A stretch of DNA of 41,294 nucleotides, taken from a virus (lineage: Duplodnaviria > Heunggongvirae > Uroviricota > Caudoviricetes). The position numbers and the translations under genes are program-made. Of this stretch, positions 1 through 41,294 are shown piece after piece. Under the pieces are notes generated by a model. That model did no database searches and was not told the origin of the DNA. It saw only the letters and a program-made list of their open reading frames with translations. The stretch lies in IMG/VR virus record IMGVR_UViG_645951847_000024; one strand, given 5' to 3'. Positions within the stretch are counted from its first letter, which is position 1; each line of letters begins with the position of its first letter.

Positions 1-3000
1 TTGCTCACCTTTACGGATTCGCGTCAGGGTACCGCTCGCATTTCAGCCCGCTTACAGCAGGATGCCGATAAAGCGACGTTGCGAGCTCTTTGTTACCAGG
101 AGCTGGCAAATATTACAGAGCCTTCAGCAAAACTCAGCCCGGCACACTGTGCACTGTTAGAGAAAGTTATTAGCCAGTTTTCTGTCCTCCCTTTAAAAAA
201 TTCCATCGACGCGCTGAAAAAAGCGATGGCTGCGAATGAGGAGCTTAGCCCGACGGACATTCAGGCACTTAAAATTATTGAGCCGATGGTGAGTTCCTTA
301 AGCACGGAGCATGCTGAAGCGATGCAAATACTTCAGGCTAACTCTGGCAATCAGCAGAAGAAAACCATGTCATGGCAAACGCTGTCTGAACAGCTGGTTG
401 GCAGTGTGGACCTTGCCGATAGAATGAGAGGCAGTTTTAAAGAATTGTCTGGGCTTGATCTTACTAAACAACAGTTTGCAGATTTTTGTTTATACAGCGA
501 GTTTGGTCGCCGCCCTAAAAATGCCTGGACCCTCGAAAGTCTGGGTCTGGTAGCCATTCACTATCCATTCATTGATAAAGTTACAACCTGCCCGCAGGAC
601 TGGAAGACATTATTACCCGATCCCGATAAGCAATTAGCGGAATGGCGTAATTTATTGAAGATTACTCTTGATTTCTTTATCCGTGAAAACAGTGCCGTTT
701 TTTACGAAAACGAGCAATACCCTCGCTGGATGGGGGCACGTTTCCCGGTAAAAATGCTCCAGGGGCCAGATAAAAAAAACAAAGGGCAGAAACGTGATCA
801 ACTTTGGCCACAAATACGCGATCGCCATTATAACCGGGTCATTAAGCTATTAATCGCAGTCTTTCCGGCAATACAACCTGAGCAGGCTCACTGGAAATCG
901 TTAGTTAACCACTTAATGATTGAGGTCTGGGATGCAATTCGACCCTGCTTACGTCAGTTTGAGTCGGGTTATCAGCTGGATATTAAACAACAAGCTGAAT
1001 TTTACAGTCCAAAGCAAGTGTGGCGTTGCCCCTATACTCGACGTGCGTTAGACGTCACGTTGCTGGGATACTCTCCGTATTTGCCGGGTAGCAAAGAAAT
1101 TGCACCTGAAAAAGCAGTGTTGATTGAAATGCCTGAGCTTCCTGTACGTCACTGGCGTTTGTCTGGTGGTGGAGAAATCGCCCGAGAAGAACGTCTGGAG
1201 TGGCTGGAAAGTAATGCGCTGATTCAACATGCCCGCGAGGAAGGATTATGGTCTACTCGCAGCGACCGACTGGCCCTGAAAGATAGCTGGTATCGTCTGG
1301 AGGAACACTCTGCGCAGAGAACGCCTGAGCAGAACCAGTTTAATGAAAAACAATTTAAGTCAGGCAAAGTTAATGTGCTGAACTGTTCCACGACCATGGA
1401 GATGGGGGTGGATATTGGTGGTATGAGTTTGGTGGCAATGAACAACGTTCCTCCAGCGCCGGCAAATTATTTGCAACGTGCAGGTCGCGCGGGGCGTCGT
1501 GGAGAGAGTGCATCTGCTGCCATTACGTTATGTAAAAACACGGCGCATGGAATGGAGGTATTCAAAGACCCCCTCTGGGCGTTCAACACTACTGCCAGTG
1601 CGCCACGGGTTCGTTTTGGGAGCAGTAGTATTGTTCAACGACATGTTAATGCCCTGGTTTTAGGTCTGTTTTTACGAGCTGAAGTTCCTGATGCGACAAA
1701 ACTGAGTTGCAAATGGTTCTTTGAAGGTGATGAGAGCCAGTGTCTTCGTTTTCTCCATTGGTTAAATCACCAGGCCGATCAGCTGGCGGATAAACTTAAA
1801 CGCCTTACTCAGGGAACCGTACTGATGTCATTGACGGCAACCCAGCTCTTGACCCGCACACAAGCAATGATGCAGCAGGTTGATATCCGCTGGAGAAGCC
1901 AACTTGCGATACTGTTGGAAAATATCGAAGCGTTGAAGGCGGATAACAGCGCGTGGGAAGAAACACCAGCAGGTAAAGCCATCGCTTATCAGCTTCGTGA
2001 TTATCGCGGTGCATATCTGTTTTCTAAACTCATTAGTGAAGCGTTCCTGCCGGGGCATGGTTTCCCGGTTGGCGTAGTCAATTTCAATTATCTGACGGCA
2101 GATGAGCTGGAAAAACGTCGCGCAATAAAAGCCACTCAGGCTGACCCTAATGAAGGGGGAGAAAGCTTTTCTCGTCGTATTGAAAAATTGCCCAGCCGTG
2201 ATTTGCCTACAGCATTACGCGAGTATGCGCCTGGTGCAGATGTGGTATTGGGCGGAAAAGTATATCGTTCCTCGGGCATTATGCTTGGCAAGGTGCTTGC
2301 CAGCGGGCAGGAGCTGTCAGGCGATCATCATATTCCGTGGTTCTGGCATTGCCGTAAATGTGGTGCGGGGGCAACCAGTACTACCCATCCTGTCGAATGT
2401 AGTCACTGCAAAGCGGATATACAGCAACTTGATGTGAAGCGTTATTTACAGCCTGTTGGTTTTGCGACAGATATTCGTTATCAGGCACATAATGATGTAT
2501 CCATGCCTGCACAACTTCCCTGGAAAGATCCACGTGTTCTTGTACCGTCTTCGGTGTGGGTTTCTTTACCCGATGCTGGGCTAGGACGTTACCGTTTTAG
2601 CCATAGTGGGGAATTGTTCCACTTCAGTGAAGGGGAATTTGGGCACGGCTACGCAATTTGCCTCTCATGTGGTCGGGCAGAATCTCAAACTCAACCCCAG
2701 CGTACCCCTGAAAATCTAAAGAACCCAGAGAGGGAAAATACGCATTACCTGTTGCGAGGGGGCAGTAACGATCGTCAGGGGAGCAATAAATTGTGCCACG
2801 GTCATGTGCATAAAGATCTGTGGTTGGGATATAGCAGTCGTACAGATATGGTTGAGCTGCAACTCAATGATGATAATGGCCTGTTGATCCGTGATGAGGT
2901 TGCCGCGCGTTCCCTTGCGGTCGCTTTGCGTGAAGGGTTAGCGCATAAATTGGGTATCGAAAATACTGAGCTGGGCGTGACGACGCAGCAAGCGCGCGAT

Positions 3001-3279
3001 ATCAATGGCTATACCGGATATTCCATCTTCATTTACGACAATAATGCGGGTGGTGCAGGTTATGCAGTGCAATTGATCGACCATTGGGCTGATGTCTTTA
3101 ATTACGCCAGAAAATTGCTCGATTGCAGTTGCGATAAATTCTGTCACCACTGCTTGCTCAGCTACGACAGTCAGCATTATGTCAACAGATTAGATCGTCA
3201 CCATGCATTAACCCTGCTTACCAATGTACGGTTGCAGCGACTTAACCTCGCGCCAGATATAGCGCGGCGATTTTTTTGA
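1..3279 (+). CDS. C-terminal part (5' end cut by window) of a large SF2 helicase with a Cys-rich DUF1998-like zinc-ribbon C-terminal domain; probably host-encoded
   Basis: Helicase C-domain motifs TMEMGVDIGG and QRAGRAGRRG in the translation; C-terminal Cys clusters (CRKCGAG...CSHC, CLSCG, CSCDKFCHHC). ORF starts at window position 1, so truncated. Family assignment from memory only. Confidence 0.6.
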   Translation: MLTFTDSRQGTARISARLQQDADKATLRALCYQELANITEPSAKLSPAHCALLEKVISQFSVLPLKNSIDALKKAMAANEELSPTDIQALKIIEPMVSSLSTEHAEAMQILQANSGNQQKKTMSWQTLSEQLVGSVDLADRMRGSFKELSGLDLTKQQFADFCLYSEFGRRPKNAWTLESLGLVAIHYPFIDKVTTCPQDWKTLLPDPDKQLAEWRNLLKITLDFFIRENSAVFYENEQYPRWMGARFPVKMLQGPDKKNKGQKRDQLWPQIRDRHYNRVIKLLIAVFPAIQPEQAHWKSLVNHLMIEVWDAIRPCLRQFESGYQLDIKQQAEFYSPKQVWRCPYTRRALDVTLLGYSPYLPGSKEIAPEKAVLIEMPELPVRHWRLSGGGEIAREERLEWLESNALIQHAREEGLWSTRSDRLALKDSWYRLEEHSAQRTPEQNQFNEKQFKSGKVNVLNCSTTMEMGVDIGGMSLVAMNNVPPAPANYLQRAGRAGRRGESASAAITLCKNTAHGMEVFKDPLWAFNTTASAPRVRFGSSSIVQRHVNALVLGLFLRAEVPDATKLSCKWFFEGDESQCLRFLHWLNHQADQLADKLKRLTQGTVLMSLTATQLLTRTQAMMQQVDIRWRSQLAILLENIEALKADNSAWEETPAGKAIAYQLRDYRGAYLFSKLISEAFLPGHGFPVGVVNFNYLTADELEKRRAIKATQADPNEGGESFSRRIEKLPSRDLPTALREYAPGADVVLGGKVYRSSGIMLGKVLASGQELSGDHHIPWFWHCRKCGAGATSTTHPVECSHCKADIQQLDVKRYLQPVGFATDIRYQAHNDVSMPAQLPWKDPRVLVPSSVWVSLPDAGLGRYRFSHSGELFHFSEGEFGHGYAICLSCGRAESQTQPQRTPENLKNPERENTHYLLRGGSNDRQGSNKLCHGHVHKDLWLGYSSRTDMVELQLNDDNGLLIRDEVAARSLAVALREGLAHKLGIENTELGVTTQQARDINGYTGYSIFIYDNNAGGAGYAVQLIDHWADVFNYARKLLDCSCDKFCHHCLLSYDSQHYVNRLDRHHALTLLTNVRLQRLNLAPDIARRFF

Positions 3280-3390
3280 TACCGATTTGCATTTCATTTG
3301 ATACCGCTGAAAAACGCCGATACGCAACTTATTTGATACTAAATCGGCGCTTTTCTTTTGAGTTTTAGAATGAGTTTTTAAGCGCTCATT
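3280..3390. mobile_element. Candidate prophage right-end region (transposase-binding repeats?); exact terminus not resolved
   Basis: Three TTTGATAC(C/T) motifs at about 3273, 3298 and 3343, and a 13-bp inverted repeat (GAAAAACGCCGAT / ATCGGCGCTTTTC, about 3309-3357) between the host stop codon and the mom stop. No match to the canonical Mu terminal sequence. Confidence 0.3.
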
Positions 3391-4123
3391 CACTCTCTTT
3401 CAAACCAGTTTTAACTGTTTGTGGTTTTGGGTAAGGCTGGACTTTGAATAGCTTTGTGTTGAGGCGTTTTCTGGCCCTCTTGTTCAGAAACCGGATGTAA
3501 CGAAACTGTCGGAACTTATGAACACTGGCTCTGTCAATATTAGCCCTCAGATGTTCACCTCGTTGTCCGCCTCGTTTAATGGCATTCCTGCAAATCTCGT
3601 GATACCACTCGCCATCAAGTTCATAGAATATTGATTCATGGCTGCCTACATAATCAAAATTGCTTGCCTGATACACGACACCAAGACAGCCACAACGCTC
3701 ATCTGCAAACGACTGAACCCACTGTACCTGCGGATAAAGCTGCCTGATTAGCTTGAGCGCGTAACTGATTGCCCTTGATTCGGAGTTTCTCGGCATACAG
3801 TCATGCAGCCATAGCCGGTTAAGCTCCATATATTCTCGGTTCTGCGTACCCGTTACGACGCGTGCACCACTGTTTGGGTTAAGGGCGTAACCCCATTGCA
3901 TTACGCCAACAAGTTCCCGTTCTGAAAATATGCCCAGATGAAGGTAGGAGTTATTTACGAAACGGTGGCTGTAATGTTTATTGACGATGACCAGTCTGGC
4001 CAGCCAGCAACTTATTGTCTCAACCCGCAACTCACGGGAGCCATAACCAACGATATTGTCGTTATAGCGAATAAGTTCAGGCGTGCTGATGATTCGGGAT
4101 GTGACTTGCTTTCTGTTCCCCAC
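3386..4123 (-). CDS. mom: Mom-like DNA modification protein (anti-restriction)
   Basis: Last gene before the prophage right end, directly downstream of and overlapping a clear Com homologue, as in Mu com-mom. Identity by synteny only; Mom sequence not recalled. Confidence 0.55.
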
Positions 4124-4277
4124 GACAGGATTTCCTTGTGTATGTGGGGTGCTCTGTGGCGCTCGGAGATGTGATTTGATTGAGGGTTTTACAGCGCGGA
4201 CATTTTACTTCCAGATAACTGAAACTGGCCCGTGCCAGTAGCTTATTGCAGTGTCGGCACCGTATGTTTCGATACAT
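4077..4277 (-). CDS. com: Com zinc-finger translational activator of mom
   Basis: [14 protein letters not shown]...EVKCPRCK...EHPT closely parallels Mu Com (IRCKNCNKLL...IRCPRCK...EHPT); overlaps mom start. Start taken at internal ATG (residue 16 of the 4077-4322 ORF). Confidence 0.7.
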
Positions 4278-4324
4278 GACCGCATAACCTCCTGCTTTGT
4301 TGTTGATGCCTTTCTCATGCAATC

Positions 4325-4341
4325 GATCGACAAAAACGATC
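4325..4341 (-). promoter_or_regulatory. Paired GATC (Dam) sites upstream of com-mom, candidate methylation-sensitive control region
   Basis: GATC at 4325-4328 and 4338-4341 within palindromic TCGATCGA / CGATCG, about 50-65 bp upstream of the proposed com start; Mu Pmom is controlled through clustered upstream GATC sites. Confidence 0.3.
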
Positions 4342-4688
4342 GATTCGATTTGTTTAATTGATACAACAAATAGATTGAAAAGTCATCAACAATGATTCAG
4401 GGAGGTGATTATTTACTTAAAGAAAACGAAGAGTTAGGTGGTGAAAACGATCATAAAATGATCATTTTATTGACTTTTTATACAGTGAAGGTAGGATCAC
4501 GCGTATATGTAGTATGTTTCAAATCAACAGGATACTACATAAAAGTGAAACCCAGCATAGCTGGAACTATGCTGGGTCAATCTGTAAAAACTTGCATCAA
4601 TGCTTTACTTCGAGCTCGTGGCGTATCCTATGATATTCCCCGGTCTCCTGTAAAGCAGAGATGCATAAAAAGGAGATCTTTATCATGG

Positions 4689-4856
4689 ATGAAAGAGCCT
4701 GTTTGCCCTGCCTGTAAGACTCCCTTACAGCTCATCTATCGCCGTTCTCGATCTCAAAATGGCAAGACATACAAACCCAAAAATGCTTCCTGTTTCAGGA
4801 TGCTGATATGTCCTGCCTGTTCTCCCAGGAGGGAAAATACACAAAACGTGCATTAA
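4689..4856 (+). CDS. Small 4-Cys zinc-ribbon protein (55 aa), function unknown
   Basis: MKEPVCPACKTPL...CFRMLICPACSP with CPxC...CPxC spacing; AAAAGGAG Shine-Dalgarno at 4669-4676 upstream of ATG 4689. The longer 4392-4856 ORF upstream looks non-coding. Confidence 0.3.
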   Translation: MKEPVCPACKTPLQLIYRRSRSQNGKTYKPKNASCFRMLICPACSPRRENTQNVH

Positions 4857-4894
4857 CAAACTCACCCGGCAGGGAAACCTGCCGGTCGGTATTG

Positions 4895-5140
4895 TTACAT
4901 CATAGTACCGTCAGTTCCGGGCTGAACCGGCTCTGGTTGCTCTACGGGTTGAGGATCATTTTCCGTGCTGTTTTCAGCCGGAGAACGGCCAACCATTCGG
5001 GCCAGCACTTCATCAACATATGCGTCGATTTGTGCCTCAAAATCCTTGCGAACCTGCGCCTTCAGCACGCGGTTCACTTCTTCAGAATAAAGTGCCTGTT
5101 TGACAAGCTCTTCAGTAACCGTGCCTTTAATCTCTGGCAT
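4895..5140 (-). CDS. Hypothetical acidic 81-aa protein with Pro/Glu-rich C-terminal tail
   Basis: Protein-like amphipathic N-terminal half; strong SD (AAAAGGAG) 8 nt upstream of the ATG on the minus strand. Confidence 0.5.
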   Translation of the reverse strand: MPEIKGTVTEELVKQALYSEEVNRVLKAQVRKDFEAQIDAYVDEVLARMVGRSPAENSTENDPQPVEQPEPVQPGTDGTMM

Positions 5141-5175
5141 GAATATTCTCCTTTTGCAGGTATATTGCCCCGTTA

Positions 5176-5358
5176 TCAGAGCGGGGTCGGGTCGTTTGGG
5201 GATGACGGTGCCTGTGCTGTTTTACTGAGTTTTTCAGCTGCCGCATCATCAATTTTACGGCGAATATAATTTCTGATGACCTTATAACCACCGCTCACCA
5301 GATATAACGCACTGACCACAGCGCAGAAATAAAGCAGCATTGTATGAACGAATGTCAT
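5176..5358 (-). CDS. Hypothetical small membrane protein (60 aa, single N-terminal TM helix)
   Basis: Hydrophobic stretch LLYFCAVVSALYLVSGG followed by a basic region; weak SD (AAGG) upstream. Confidence 0.45.
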   Translation of the reverse strand: MTFVHTMLLYFCAVVSALYLVSGGYKVIRNYIRRKIDDAAAEKLSKTAQAPSSPNDPTPL

Positions 5359-5426
5359 ATAAGCTTACCTTTGATATTGACTACATAATTCGTTATCGGG
5401 TAAAAACATCGAAGCGACTGATAACC

Positions 5427-5451
5427 ACTCCTTCGGGAGTATTTTTATTTT
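5427..5451 (+). terminator. Hairpin with UUCG loop followed by T-run (plus-strand terminator-like)
   Basis: ACTCC-TTCG-GGAGT at 5427-5440 followed by ATTTTTATTTT. Confidence 0.3.
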
Positions 5452-5469
5452 CCTTTATGGGTTAGGTAG

Positions 5470-5514
5470 CTCCCGCCAGCCATATCATGACCGGCGGGAT
5501 TTTTTTATTCTGTT
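5470..5514 (+). terminator. GC-rich hairpin followed by T7 run (plus-strand terminator-like), overlapping the esterase stop codon
   Basis: TCCCGCC (5471-5477) pairs with GGCGGGA (5493-5499), then TTTTTTTATT. On the minus strand the same hairpin is not followed by a T-run. Confidence 0.4.
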
Positions 5515-7544
5515 ACCGCTTTTTTCACTTCCACCACAATGCTGTCAATCAGCACCGGGTAAGTTGCATTTTTTGTGATATCCGTTACGCGGAGTTTGTC
5601 CACCGGGAAAGTTCCTACTGGTGACTGCGTCAGGGTAAACGCGGCACCATCCTGACCATCAATAACCGGAATAACCTGAAGGCTGTTATTTCCTGCAAAA
5701 CGGAAGGCCAGCGTATGCCATTCATTATCAAATGCACCAAAGGTTCCCAGTTTCTGGTTATTTGTTGCCACTTTTGCATTGTGGTACATCACATTCAGGT
5801 CTTTTGCGTCTGTCTGGATGTAGAACGATGCCAGCAGATTATTCCCTGCATCCCCTGTCAGGGTGACACCCTGCGGCAGAGAGGAAACCGGCCAGTAAAG
5901 CCCCATGACATACTGGTTTGCCACCAGGTCGCCAGGTACTTTAAAACGACAACTGATTAAACCACCATTTTTCAGCAGTTCAGCACCAGTACCGGCATCA
6001 TGATCCAGATACCAAGATGATTTACCTGTTTCCTTGGTCAGTTTCATTGCCTTACCACCTGTGCCTCCTGCATCACTGATAATTTCAGCTTTACCGCCAG
6101 CCGGCTCCCAGCCCTGGGCTTTCAGATTTCCTTCTGACTCACTGACACGATAAGACAGCAGTGTTGTGGTTACTGCTTCAGTTTCTGAAGGTGACGGCAC
6201 TGGTGCTTCAGTTTCAGAAGATGGAACATCGGCTTTTACTGTGGTTCGCCCCGCATGAGTCAGAACTGCCGTGGCCAGACGGTCGGAAATAATCCCACGA
6301 CGTGCCCATGAACTGAAATGGCTGGCCCGGTCCGCAGATGTCCAGGTGGCGGCACTGTTACGCCACGTTGAGCCGTAATAACCAATGGATTCAATATCCG
6401 GGTCTTCTGCCGGATTGTTGGTGGGTACATTCGCGTCATTTTCATCTGTCATTAATGGAACGAAATGAATGTTTTTATCTGTTTTGTTTTTGTAGCCGCC
6501 ATAGATTGCCTGGTATGCCGGTTCATTTTTCTGTTTCCAGAAATACGTGGTATCGCCACAAATCCACGGAACGCCAGCAGCACTGCCACCGGTACACTGT
6601 TCCGCCTGTTCAGCCAGGTCTGCGCGGAATTTTTCCACCATCGCCAGAAACAGCGCGGAATGCTCCGTCGGCTTCGCATCAATATCAAACTCGCCCTGCA
6701 TCCACACCACAGCAAGCAGGCGGTTTTTCGGGTTCTTCGCCAGTGCCGCTTTTGTCCGGCTGATTAAGTCCTTATACAGCGGCTTATCCACACCCCAGCG
6801 GGCTGAGTCCTCTGAAGCACCCGTGCTGTCACTGTACGTGCCGTCAGCACCCGCCGTGAATGCAGAACCACCACGGCAGCAGGGAACCAGCAGAATCCCC
6901 GCATCTGCCGGAATAAACGGCAGCAGTTTTTTGGCAATGTGAAGCCCCTGACCCACGGTGCCATATTGCCCTTTAGCCACATCCGCTTTCGGGTGATTTT
7001 TTCCACTCATATCCTGCACATCATGCAGACAGTGGTCGGCCAGAATGATGTCGTTATACTGACAGGCTTTACCTCCCGGCGTGACTGTACTGCGACGGGC
7101 TAACTGCATAATACGCGGTTCGGGGCGGTCATATGTCTCCGGCAGTGGCAGACCTTCACCGTAAGCCATACCGTTTGACTGACCAGCAAGAACCACCACG
7201 TAATACCAGGAAGGGGAGCTGGAAGCAGTTTCATTTCCTGACGGACGGGTATGTGTTTCAGCATTATCCCAGTCTGACGGTTCAGCAGTACCGGCAACAT
7301 CAGCACTTAACGGAATGACCGCACCAATACCCGCTCCGGTAATTTCCACACTCGGATCACCGGATACTGGCCTTACCCACAGGCAATCCCGTGTATTAAA
7401 ACTGATGAGACAGTCAGCAAATGTCATTCCTCCTTTTGTTTCGGCCGGAGGAAAGGGAGCCTCAAGAAATGCCGCTGTACCACCGGAAACTTTAACAGTA
7501 AAGTTTCCGGGCATTGATGATAGTTGAACCCATTTGGACGTCAT
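5505..7544 (-). CDS. Predicted sialate O-acetylesterase-like cargo protein (SGNH/SASA-type esterase with extra N- and C-terminal domains), NanS-p-like
   Basis: 679 aa; VVLAGQSNGMAYGEG resembles the GQSN catalytic-Ser block of sialic-acid-specific acetylesterases; sits between gin and com-mom, where Mu has no gene. Family from memory. Confidence 0.6.
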   Translation of the reverse strand: MTSKWVQLSSMPGNFTVKVSGGTAAFLEAPFPPAETKGGMTFADCLISFNTRDCLWVRPVSGDPSVEITGAGIGAVIPLSADVAGTAEPSDWDNAETHTRPSGNETASSSPSWYYVVVLAGQSNGMAYGEGLPLPETYDRPEPRIMQLARRSTVTPGGKACQYNDIILADHCLHDVQDMSGKNHPKADVAKGQYGTVGQGLHIAKKLLPFIPADAGILLVPCCRGGSAFTAGADGTYSDSTGASEDSARWGVDKPLYKDLISRTKAALAKNPKNRLLAVVWMQGEFDIDAKPTEHSALFLAMVEKFRADLAEQAEQCTGGSAAGVPWICGDTTYFWKQKNEPAYQAIYGGYKNKTDKNIHFVPLMTDENDANVPTNNPAEDPDIESIGYYGSTWRNSAATWTSADRASHFSSWARRGIISDRLATAVLTHAGRTTVKADVPSSETEAPVPSPSETEAVTTTLLSYRVSESEGNLKAQGWEPAGGKAEIISDAGGTGGKAMKLTKETGKSSWYLDHDAGTGAELLKNGGLISCRFKVPGDLVANQYVMGLYWPVSSLPQGVTLTGDAGNNLLASFYIQTDAKDLNVMYHNAKVATNNQKLGTFGAFDNEWHTLAFRFAGNNSLQVIPVIDGQDGAAFTLTQSPVGTFPVDKLRVTDITKNATYPVLIDSIVVEVKKAVTE

Positions 7545-7643: not shown

Positions 7644-8204
7644 TTATTTTTCCGAAACGCTCGCAGGATAATAACGATAAAGGGTTGAAAGGCCGATATC
7701 AAAAATAAGTGCCACCTGTCTTCGACTGACACCCCCGGCCAGTAAACGCCCGACCTGCTCGTATTGTTCCTGCGTGAGACGACGGGGTCTGCCGCCGGTT
7801 CGTCCCCTTTCACGGGCAGCTGCAAGACCAGCCCGTGTCCGTTCGACAATTAATTCACGCTCCATTTCTGCCAGCGCACCCATTATGTGAAAAAAGAAGC
7901 GCCCCATGGGGGTTGACGTATCAATGTTGTCAGTAAGACTACGAAAATTTATCCCCTGTTGCTGTAATTCATCTGTCAGCGCAACAAGGTGGCGCATACT
8001 GCGCCCCAGCCTGTCCAGTTTCCAGACCATCAGTGTGTCACCGGGTTTTAGTTTCTTCAGTGCCCGCTTCAGTCCCGGCCGCTGTGTCGTTTTACCACTC
8101 ATTTTATCTTCAAAAATCTGCTCACATCCTGCACATTCCAGCGCATTTCTTTGTAAACCTGTGTTCTGGTCATTTGTTGATACGCGTATATAGCCAATCA
8201 GCAT
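7644..8204 (-). CDS. gin: Serine DNA invertase (Gin/Hin/Pin/Cin family)
   Basis: MLIGYIRVSTNDQNTGLQRNALECAGCEQIFEDK...GRFFFHIMGALAEMERELI is near-identical in pattern to Mu Gin; catalytic Ser in RVSTNDQ; adjacent to an inverted tail-fibre segment. Confidence 0.93.
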   Translation of the reverse strand: MLIGYIRVSTNDQNTGLQRNALECAGCEQIFEDKMSGKTTQRPGLKRALKKLKPGDTLMVWKLDRLGRSMRHLVALTDELQQQGINFRSLTDNIDTSTPMGRFFFHIMGALAEMERELIVERTRAGLAAARERGRTGGRPRRLTQEQYEQVGRLLAGGVSRRQVALIFDIGLSTLYRYYPASVSEK

Positions 8205-39203: not shown

Positions 39204-41294
39204 TCAGGCCAGCGGGTCATTTTCTTTTAATTTCGCTTCCAGCAACTGCAATCCCCGCTGGAAATTACGCTCGTATTCTTCATCAGGTTCATCGTCAGCG
39301 ACCGGTTGCTGAACGGTCACCGTATTACCCACAGGGCGGTATATGTTTTCCAGCCAGGGCTCCTGCGGCTTGTGCTCCAGCACGTTGACAACCTCATCCT
39401 CGGCATCACGGATTTTTTCCTCTGCGCGTTTACGCATGCCTTTAAGGCGTTGCTGCTGTTTGTAGTATTCCGCGCTGACCGGGAAGGCTTCGCGTTTATT
39501 GCCGTCCCATACCGCCTCGCAAATCACGCTGCCATCCAGGCGACGTACGGTAATTCGTTCGGCATCATGAATGTCATAGCTGATAAGCACCTTACGGCCA
39601 TGCTCGTCACGCAGCTCGGGCGCGTAGTAAATATTATTCAGCCAGCGTATTTCACAGCGTCTTACAGGGCGTTCCACCATCGGCCGGAACATATCCCGCA
39701 GCTCAACATCGGACAGCCATTCAATTTCCGTGTCCTCTTCCGCCAGGCGTTTTTTTCTGAACTCCGCCGGGCTGTAATGCTTGCCGTTCGGCTTCACCGG
39801 TAATTCATCGTGCGGCCGGTTGTTGTACCACTCAACACCGTCACGAATGGCATCAATCAGTTCAGACCAGGACGGTAAATCACGCATCGCTGACTGCTGC
39901 CGGGCGTTCAGCCGTTTGCCCTGTTGCAGGGCAGTAAATGCCGAGCGTAAATCGCGGTTGGTTTTGCGTAACGTCTCGCGATCTGCACCTTTCCCGAAAT
40001 AGGTGCGGTATTTACGGGCTATGCGCATCGGTAATGTGCGGTTAAGCCGTTCGATAATGCCTCGTCCCTGCGGATTACCGGCAATCCCGGTCGGGTGATT
40101 AATCCCCAGTCGCGGCAGTATCCCCACAACCTCCTTATCCAGGATGTCGGCGGTTTCCCCGGAGCCGTTATCCGAGTAATACAGAAACGGTTTGCCGTGA
40201 TGGCGAATGCCGTGCTGTATGGCACCGGCTACGGCGAAAACATTTTCAGCCAGGTCAAGGCTCCAGCCCACCACAAAGCGCGTGCCACCGTCGATAACAA
40301 AGGTCACTTCCGGTGCAAATGGCCGACCGTGAACCGGGTGTGCGCATTTCAGCTTCATGCCGTGACCGTCACCAATCCAGACATAATTCACCGGCATTCT
40401 GGACCAGTCGCGGCGCGTGAATCCCTCAAGCTGGCGGTATTCACTGCCGGTCACCCGGCCTTTTTGTTTCACCACTTCCGGCAGTTTCTTCATTGCGCGG
40501 CGAATGGTGTCATAAGACGGCATGATATCGAGCATATAAGGCTCATCAGCGTGCCGGTGCTGCCATTCAGCGACAAAATCCTCGTAAGCCTCGGTCATTG
40601 GTCGGCCGTTTGACTGGCGATACTGCGCCAGAAATTCGGGCAGCCAGTTAATATCTTCGGCTTTTATTTCCTGGCGCTTACCCGGTGCCAGTAAAAGCAG
40701 GCGTTCAGCGGCGTTCTGCGCCTTGTTAAAGGCCGCAATCCAGCGTTTCAGCGTGATTTCACTTAACGCGCGGCTGTTTCCCTTTTTGGCGTTCGCCGTC
40801 TCAACCATTGCCACAATGCGCTCGTCCAGCTGCGAACGTGCCAGGTTGTCAACGATAAACCGGATAGCCTTCGCACAGCTGAAACCAGGTTGTTGCGCGA
40901 CTTTCAGAACTTCGCTGACGATCGCGATTCGTGCATCAGCCACCTGGCGCTGGTTTTCAGTCAGGGCATTAAGGCGTTCGACCATCAGTTGTGGTGATCC
41001 GCGATATGCCTCCACCGCATCAACCACGGCAGGCGAGCGTCTGGCCTTTGTCACCACTGGAGCCGGTGATTCATCGACTTTTTGAGTCATCAGTTGCAGG
41101 GCGTAGCGTTCACGTAATGCCTGCTGCGTCACTTCAGGTAAACAGTCGATGCTGTATTCAGTTGCTTTAGAGCCTGAGCGACGACGGGAACAACAGCTTT
41201 TCCCTTGTACGTAACGTTGTAATGCCTGGCGAATACCTTTTGTTGTAGCAGGCATTCCGGGCGCGCCAATCAGTTCTTTTGCAATGACATACAT
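39204..41294 (-). CDS. A: DDE transposase A (MuA-like); start at or near window end
   Basis: 696 aa upstream of B; large multi-domain protein of the size and position of Mu A. Confidence 0.85.
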   Translation of the reverse strand: MYVIAKELIGAPGMPATTKGIRQALQRYVQGKSCCSRRRSGSKATEYSIDCLPEVTQQALRERYALQLMTQKVDESPAPVVTKARRSPAVVDAVEAYRGSPQLMVERLNALTENQRQVADARIAIVSEVLKVAQQPGFSCAKAIRFIVDNLARSQLDERIVAMVETANAKKGNSRALSEITLKRWIAAFNKAQNAAERLLLLAPGKRQEIKAEDINWLPEFLAQYRQSNGRPMTEAYEDFVAEWQHRHADEPYMLDIMPSYDTIRRAMKKLPEVVKQKGRVTGSEYRQLEGFTRRDWSRMPVNYVWIGDGHGMKLKCAHPVHGRPFAPEVTFVIDGGTRFVVGWSLDLAENVFAVAGAIQHGIRHHGKPFLYYSDNGSGETADILDKEVVGILPRLGINHPTGIAGNPQGRGIIERLNRTLPMRIARKYRTYFGKGADRETLRKTNRDLRSAFTALQQGKRLNARQQSAMRDLPSWSELIDAIRDGVEWYNNRPHDELPVKPNGKHYSPAEFRKKRLAEEDTEIEWLSDVELRDMFRPMVERPVRRCEIRWLNNIYYAPELRDEHGRKVLISYDIHDAERITVRRLDGSVICEAVWDGNKREAFPVSAEYYKQQQRLKGMRKRAEEKIRDAEDEVVNVLEHKPQEPWLENIYRPVGNTVTVQQPVADDEPDEEYERNFQRGLQLLEAKLKENDPLA

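Follow-up and report, generated by a model that had tools for sequence, protein, structure and literature searches.

Introduction

Two hairpins, each followed by a run of T, lie between a sialate O-acetylesterase gene and a small membrane-peptide gene in the 41,294-nucleotide viral record IMGVR_UViG_645951847_000024 (hereafter the window, numbered from its first letter). Both are oriented as terminators of the plus strand, and the genes on either side of them are read from the minus strand, which raises the question of what is transcribed toward them. The preliminary description of this locus, drawn from the DNA letters alone, had proposed convergent transcription, an antisense or small RNA (sRNA), or an arrangement resembling a type I toxin-antitoxin system. 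The window represents nearly an entire Mu-like prophage, lying on the minus strand and near-identical to prophage Sp18 of Escherichia coli O157:H7 Sakai. Our analysis suggested that both hairpins are very probably parts of a single plus-strand gene for an Hfq-binding sRNA, carried in a mobile cassette of the esterase, a DUF1378 gene and, in some cases, a DUF826 gene. The RNA is already catalogued as EcOnc37, a candidate of a recognized kind of prophage sRNA, and both small open reading frames (ORFs) beside it belong to known DUF families.

A Probable Small RNA Gene in the Esterase–DUF1378 Spacer

The elements of the proposed gene are as follows.

5377–5406, plus strand: predicted sigma-70 promoter, with the −35 element TTGACT (5377–5382), an 18-bp spacer and the −10 element TAAAAA (5401–5406)
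5413–5506, plus strand: predicted sRNA of about 94 nt (Sakai candidate EcOnc37), with a promoter-based 5′ end and a terminator-based 3′ end
5427–5440, plus strand: stem-loop 1 (hairpin 1), a 5-bp stem with a C(UUCG)G tetraloop, ACTCC-TTCG-GGAGT
5450–5466, plus strand: conserved single-stranded block UUCCUUUAUGGGUUAGG, consensus UUCCUU(U/A)AUGGGUU.GG, a candidate seed or Hfq contact
5471–5499, plus strand: stem-loop 2 (hairpin 2), with a CCCGCC/GGCGGG core, followed by U7 at 5500–5506

The two hairpin-plus-T-run motifs reported earlier were recovered at 5427–5451 and 5471–5506, and both have the shape of a terminator on the plus strand only; on the gene-sense strand, the run of A precedes the stem. 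Hairpin 1 (−6.6 kcal/mol, z-score −2.7) is trailed by the U-rich tract ATTTTTATTTT at 5441–5451 and was detected by a terminator scan of the plus strand. Hairpin 2 (−14.7 kcal/mol, z-score −3.2) was overlooked by the scan because of its interrupted stem, and the last two T of its T-run belong to the stop codon of the esterase on the other strand (5505–5507). Terminator-like sites between positions 3300 and 8300 numbered 13, against 4.9 ± 2.3 in shuffled sequences. The promoter motif, TTGACT-N18-TAAAAA, occurs once in the window when both strands are counted, against 0.02 matches expected, and its predicted activity is read at the level of the motif. Hairpin 1 has this conserved promoter about 20 nt upstream, and the hairpins can be accounted for without a convergently transcribed coding gene. 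The earlier statement that no coding gene is evident on the opposite strand held, as no conserved plus-strand ORF spans the hairpins; two plus-strand mini-ORFs (5340–5465 and 5487–5624) were not accepted as genes, since related spacers differ in both length and sequence.

According to this model, host RNA polymerase would start at the sigma-70 promoter, which lies on the strand opposite to the DUF1378 start codon and about 20 bp upstream of it, would transcribe about 94 nt away from DUF1378, and would stop at the GC hairpin and U7, with the U-tract overlapping the esterase stop codon. The resulting RNA, antisense to the esterase–DUF1378 intercistronic region, would comprise a short leader, the UUCG-capped stem-loop, a U/A-rich linker of about 30 nt in which the UUAUGGGUUAGG block is conserved, and the terminator, as is standard for sRNAs that depend on Hfq and act by base pairing. 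Hairpin 2 is the intrinsic terminator of the sRNA, and hairpin 1 is its internal 5′ stem-loop, the U-tract of which is likely to bind Hfq. Hairpin 1 may also act as a weak early terminator, in which case the shortened RNA would measure about 38 nt; since the Hfq peak described below is located downstream of it, read-through past hairpin 1 clearly occurs. The exact 5′ end and the seed region are predicted. On the minus strand of the Sakai record NC_002695.2, the ends are predicted at about 5,077,569 (5′) and about 5,077,476–5,077,482 (3′). The block at 5450–5466 is the best-conserved unpaired segment in an alignment of the Mu-type, P2-type and lambdoid relatives, and it lies within the Hfq peak.

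Hfq Binding of the Antisense RNA in the Sakai Strain

Between positions 5340 and 5520, the window differs from Sp18 at position 5363 only, outside the predicted RNA. This base, located between the DUF1378 Shine–Dalgarno sequence and the ATG, is G in the window; it is C in Sakai, as in most other genomes. Tree et al. (2014; PMC4104026) crosslinked RNA to Hfq in strain Sakai by crosslinking and analysis of cDNA (CRAC). The ECs4993…ECs4994 spacer, which corresponds to the esterase–DUF1378 spacer of the window, ranks 57th among the Hfq-bound intergenic regions in Table S1B of that study, with reads of 15921:0, 5032:0, 11303:1, 91585:187 and 2303:0 (PMC4104026). The strand of the populated read column was deduced from three loci of known orientation. 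AsxR, on the minus strand, dominates its own spacer in the populated column, EcOnc33, also on the minus strand, falls in that column too, and the reads of the tRNA operon preceding tufB, on the plus strand, appear in the other column. The populated column therefore corresponds to the Sakai minus strand, and the spacer reads are antisense to the genes, that is, on the plus strand of the window.

Table S2 of the same study lists EcOnc37 in Sp18, on the minus strand and in 5/5 datasets, at 5077340–5077410 in the old Sakai coordinates (PMC4104026). The offset from the old coordinates to NC_002695.2 was about +128 at AsxR and at EcOnc33, for the latter through a located northern probe, and about 0 at EcOnc52 (1.18 Mb). 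The whole Sakai record is presumably 128 bp longer than the old one. After the +128 correction, EcOnc37 corresponds to window positions 5444–5514 and spans the U-rich linker and hairpin 2 with its U-tract; the strand-specific read counts of the spacer are independent of this offset. The 'Rho Term' column of Table S2, which carries an 'x' for EcOnc37, was ambiguous and was not used, and no later mention of EcOnc37 was found in the literature searched. Binding of the antisense RNA by Hfq in vivo has been demonstrated at this locus by the published CRAC data, the Sakai sequence being identical across the RNA. The identical spacer, the antisense reads and the EcOnc37 entry, together with the northern-validated equivalents discussed below, bear out the sRNA among the options initially proposed.

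Conservation of the Spacer among Esterase 3′ Flanks

We gathered 80 IMG/VR loci through the C-terminus of the esterase and extracted the esterase–DUF1378 spacer from each, which yielded 28 distinct spacers of 133–151 nt. An A7–8 run and a GC hairpin (CCGCC/GGCGG) follow the esterase stop immediately in all 28, with a loop of 11 to about 45 nt, and the antisense U7–8 tract is present in every variant. The antisense motif TTGAC[AT]-N17/18-TA[AG]AAA was found at a constant distance from the start of DUF1378 in 26 of the 28 spacers and was one base off in the other two. Each spacer combines a small 5′ hairpin, a U-rich linker and the terminator, giving predicted RNAs of 74–97 nt. The terminator stem contains five invariant pairs and two flanking pairs with changes on both sides (AU/GC/CG), and wobble pairs favour the antisense strand in variants L003 and L013 (and, for hairpin 1, in L009). 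Hairpin 1 is kept in the Mu-type variant L009, where C5426U and A5441G add a U·G pair on the plus strand only, and in the Mu-type variant L010, where two changes re-register a 6-bp stem; the lambdoid variants contain an analogous small hairpin with a U-tract. An nhmmer profile built from the DUF1378-linked lambdoid variants alone gave a single match in the window, at 5437–5504 of the plus strand (E 0.0098), and the cassette was also found with a recognizably related spacer in a P2-like prophage. Two profile searches of genome contigs, one with the DUF1378 alignment and one with the esterase C-terminus, yielded zero confirmed loci. The suggestion that the hairpins might be a conserved repeat element family, such as the repetitive extragenic palindromic (REP) or bacterial interspersed mosaic element (BIME) type, was rejected: the element occurs at a median of one place per genome, at most at four, and always in the esterase–DUF1378 context.

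Relation to Named Prophage Small RNAs

EcOnc37 and the RNA of the window share the locus, the strand and, across the RNA, the sequence (PMC4104026). The published entry lacks a promoter, a structure and a target; the promoter, ends and structure given here are predicted. A close parallel is EcOnc33 of Sakai Sp6, an RNA of about 71 nt by northern blot that is likewise antisense in the spacer between nanS-p (ECs1527) and a DUF1378 gene (ECs1528). Its promoter is TTGACA-N18-TAAAAA, its terminator, GCCGCCGG/CCGGCGGC with U7, stands beside the esterase stop, and its spacer is strongly bound by Hfq, ranking 16th (PMC4104026). EcOnc33 differs from the RNA of the window in its unrelated 5′ and central sequence, its longer terminator loop and its lambdoid host phage.

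PasA (85 nt) and PasC (79 nt) of enteropathogenic E. coli (EPEC) E2348/69 were validated by northern blot and are Hfq-dependent, with many trans partners in data on RNA interactions found through ligation and sequencing (RIL-seq) (Pearl Mizrahi et al., 2021; PMC8550237). According to the preprint of Zhu, Shabalina and Storz (2026), the esterase–PasA/C–holin arrangement is widespread. Like the RNA of the window, PasA and PasC, whose homologues in enterohaemorrhagic E. coli (EHEC) are EcOnc51/52, are convergent to and directly 3′ of a SASA esterase, the 3′ end of PasC being 2 nt from the esterase stop. They also share the TTGAC-N18 promoter (TTGACA in their case) and the order of 5′ hairpin, U-rich linker and GC terminator, and our promoter rule gave 84 nt for PasA (published 85) and 77 nt for PasC (published 79). 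However, a holin gene or an insertion sequence element lies downstream of PasA and PasC in place of DUF1378 or DUF826, and their terminator stem is GCCAGCG where that of the window is CCCGCC. EcOnc52 (Sp4) has the same geometry relative to the stop codon of its esterase. In prophage PP2 of EPEC E2348/69 (L086, 2764–3050), two tandem antisense modules follow the esterase, namely PasA and a second module, with promoter and terminator, that abuts the stop and resembles Sakai EcOnc52; given these tandem modules, the minor 236-nt form of PasA, which ends at the stop codon, would represent read-through.

EcOnc33, PasC and PasA have thus been shown to be discrete sRNAs and are positional equivalents of the RNA studied here. 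Among all the esterase 3′ flanks that we analysed, theirs included, none departed from the order of promoter, 5′ hairpin, U-rich linker and terminator at the stop codon. Beyond the terminator and promoter, homology of the Mu-type RNA with EcOnc33 and PasA/C is unproven, and the RNAs may instead be separate bodies in a common promoter-terminator scaffold. The body of the Mu-type RNA has no detectable similarity to PasA or PasC, so blastn surveys of the kind made by Zhu et al. would miss it. The pattern seen here, in which the 3′ end is conserved and the 5′ end varies, is similar to that described for AsxR and AgvB by Tree et al. (PMC4104026). AsxR, AgvB and EcOnc03 are also short, Hfq-bound prophage RNAs convergent to a late or moron unit near an esterase, but they lie upstream of it, measure 51–60 nt and carry a specific 42-nt 3′ region. 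The AsxR/AgvB 3′ sequence was absent from the spacer of the window, and its RNA falls outside that class. HnrS (EcOnc10–12), which in lambdoid phages lies about 5 kb away, is another sRNA and was set aside.

Genes and Prophage Setting of the Cassette

The genes and the remaining hairpin around the spacer, together with the markers of the prophage, are as follows.

3386–4123: mom
4077–4322: com
4866–4885: 8-bp GC hairpin with a GAAA loop, terminator-like in both directions (−17.8 and −17.1 kcal/mol)
4895–5140, minus strand: DUF826 gene, 81-aa acidic protein (Pfam PF05696, E 2.8e-15; phrog_311), equal to ECs4995
5176–5358, minus strand: DUF1378 gene, 60-aa peptide (Pfam PF07125, E 1.2e-38; phrog_494), equal to ECs4994
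5505–7544, minus strand: NanS-p-like sialate O-acetylesterase of 679 aa with SASA and DUF6645 domains, equal to ECs4993 of Sp18
7644–8204: Gin-type invertase gene (gin)
39204–41294: Mu transposase, marker of a Mu-like prophage

The esterase, DUF1378 and DUF826 genes form a three-gene insert on the minus strand between gin and com. The two small minus-strand genes described earlier between the esterase and com were confirmed, with ribosome-binding sites AAGG (DUF1378) and AAGGAG (DUF826), and the homology search that had been proposed for both peptides assigned them to Pfam DUF1378 (131.5 bits) and DUF826 (56.7 bits), well above the cut-off of 25. They are real genes of known but uncharacterized families, and together with the esterase gene they probably form one operon. 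DUF1378 has a single N-terminal hydrophobic helix (approximately residues 3–22) followed by a basic and polar tail with KVIRNYIRRK. In the homologue search, every DUF826 relative with a named source came from E. coli or Shigella, and no function was assigned to any of the relatives found there; NCBIfam gave no name for any of the four proteins of the region.

The region 4300–5700 is 99.9% identical to many chromosomes of Shiga toxin-producing E. coli. The trio of esterase (nanS-p), DUF1378 and DUF826 is familiar as a block located between stx and the holin gene of Stx and other lambdoid phages. Lambdoid, Mu-like and P2-like phages, whose backbones are unrelated to one another, were all found to carry the cassette of esterase, antisense sRNA spacer and DUF1378, which therefore behaves as a mobile moron unit. 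In the P2-like case (L090, 2351–4555, E. coli JNEC-KY174; also L089), the cassette is placed between lysC and the tail genes, and DUF826 is missing from it. Because DUF1378 and DUF826 accompany the esterase into Mu-like or P2-like contexts that have no adjacent holin, they would be members of the esterase cassette and not of a lysis module. A distant-mode DNA search of 4860–5520 against the phage collection returned two Mu-like inserts and nothing else.

Several further observations concern the flanks. A helicase ORF (1–3279) with Helicase_C and MrfA zinc-binding domains, truncated by the start of the window, adjoins the mom end of the prophage (about 3380). The insertion site differs from those in Sakai (sorM) and PA20 (a PilZ-domain pseudogene beside bcsB), as expected of a transposing Mu-like phage. 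The hairpin at 4866–4885 separates the convergent stops of DUF826 and a plus-strand ORF at 4392–4856, which is annotated as an ECs4996-like protein of 154 aa (phrog_26524). An alternative gene model for the latter, at 4689–4856, is a 55-aa CxxC…CxxC zinc-ribbon ORF with AGGAG upstream, so the 154-aa annotation may be wrong. Inside the longer ORF, a hairpin of 13 bp with a T-rich run behind it (4549–4578) is terminator-like on the minus strand.

Alternative Explanations and Points of Doubt

Several results weigh against an sRNA gene at this locus. The +128 offset was derived from loci at 1.27 and 1.56 Mb and applied by extrapolation at 5.08 Mb, and EcOnc37 was published as an Hfq crosslinking peak only, without a northern entry or mapped ends. 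The −10 element matches the consensus at 4/6 positions and is not reported by a generic promoter scan. The fold of the whole plus-strand RNA is modest relative to shuffled sequences (z-score −1.8), and A·C mismatches interrupt hairpin 2 on the sRNA strand, making its stem the weaker of the two strands. Searches of Rfam at gathering and E-value thresholds gave no relevant match, and blastn of the RNA against PasA, PasC and EcOnc33 returned the terminator only or nothing. A covariance model of the mixed family, which had only three consensus pairs, gave the window a non-significant score (E 2.4); in this model, MAFFT had misregistered the PasA and PasC stems.

The type I toxin-antitoxin arrangement in the preliminary description implies that the RNA mainly pairs in cis with the esterase–DUF1378 transcript, 55–148 nt upstream of the DUF1378 start, and that cleavage or a blocked standby site silences a harmful membrane peptide (and, in lambdoid phages, the downstream holin) in lysogens. 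The 60-aa peptide with its single helix would suit this role, and the RNA, transcribed divergently from just upstream of DUF1378, matches the untranslated region before that gene with full complementarity, a geometry similar to that of tisB/istR-1 and zor/orz. In tisB/istR-1 and zorO/orzO, as here, a small membrane peptide is encoded next to an opposite-strand sRNA that lies upstream and is complementary to the untranslated region. The RNA module and DUF1378 also occur together in 80/80 IMG/VR loci with the DUF6645-type esterase. The complementarity counts only if the region belongs to the mRNA, and since no sense promoter was predicted in the spacer, the DUF1378 mRNA probably does include it. 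Nevertheless, the RNA overlaps neither the ribosome-binding site nor the ORF of DUF1378, the peptide differs from TisB and ZorO in being encoded in an operon with larger genes, and no report of DUF1378 toxicity was found in the literature searched. The co-occurrence is also broken, as the module is found without DUF1378 in EPEC PP2 and PP5 and in Sakai Sp4; PasA, PasC, EcOnc52 and the second PP2 module have the same position and build beside esterases that no DUF1378 gene follows. Hfq dependence and many trans partners are not typical of type I antitoxins. Both properties were reported for PasA and PasC (PMC8550237), the validated relatives, and we accordingly regard a mainly cis-acting, antitoxin-like RNA as distinctly unlikely.

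It is even less probable that the hairpins are insulating terminators only, which would stop plus-strand read-through from the ORF at 4392–4856 or the host flank and shield the esterase, the Hfq signal then being the U-rich 3′ end of a long plus-strand transcript. That ORF ends at 4856, the hairpin at 4866–4885 behind it has a poor T-run on the plus strand, tandem terminators are typical of a backstop, and the ends of EcOnc37 are unmapped, all of which would fit. But lambdoid and P2-like relatives that have no such ORF retain the hairpin, the U-tract and the promoter motif, this motif is unique within the window, and EcOnc33, PasA and PasC are discrete RNAs of 71–85 nt with 5′ ends that fit the conserved promoter. 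We give still less credence to the hairpin after the esterase stop being a sense-strand element, a stabilizer or processing site of the mRNA 3′ end to which the antisense RNA is incidental. In the gene-sense RNA, hairpin 2 does form 13 uninterrupted pairs (two of them G·U; −23.2 kcal/mol, z-score −5.7), against the interrupted plus-strand stem, and the sense-strand spacer as a whole folds with a z-score of −4.1. The conserved asymmetry, however, is a run of 7–8 A located 5′ of the sense hairpin, a feature explicable only as a U-tract on the opposite strand; the wobble pairs of the other variants named above favour the antisense strand, and the Hfq reads are antisense-specific. A sense element is compatible with an sRNA and not exclusive of it, and the stronger sense stem may point to a second use of hairpin 2 on the mRNA.

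Taken together, these considerations favour a plus-strand, Hfq-binding sRNA, which in the lysogen would presumably act in trans, on mRNAs or sRNAs of the host or of the prophage. Any esterase–DUF1378 read-through mRNA is perfectly complementary to this RNA, and a cis effect may coexist with the trans role. An extension of this idea, which we consider unlikely, is that the sRNA serves to control, in cis, a mobile and self-contained cassette (esterase, antisense sRNA and DUF1378, with or without DUF826) that crosses between lambdoid, Mu-like and P2-like phages. In that event, pairing with the intercistronic RNA would uncouple esterase expression in the lysogen from the downstream membrane peptide, and in lambdoid phages also from the holin, and would serve as an antitoxin-like brake that is sponged off by the flood of late mRNA upon prophage induction.

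Biological Significance

Prophage sRNAs of EHEC and EPEC, including AsxR, AgvB, StxS, HnrS and the Pas RNAs, rewire host regulation and virulence, and most of the candidates are unstudied. The present gain is incremental: the annotation is improved and a candidate is made available for testing, but the system is not of a new kind. EcOnc37 acquires a concrete gene model with a promoter, ends, a structure and a candidate seed, and the Mu-type RNA is too divergent for the BLAST surveys published so far. More generally, the 3′ flank of the NanS-p esterase appears as a conserved sRNA slot in several types of phage, in which the promoter and terminator are kept and the body of the RNA is swapped.

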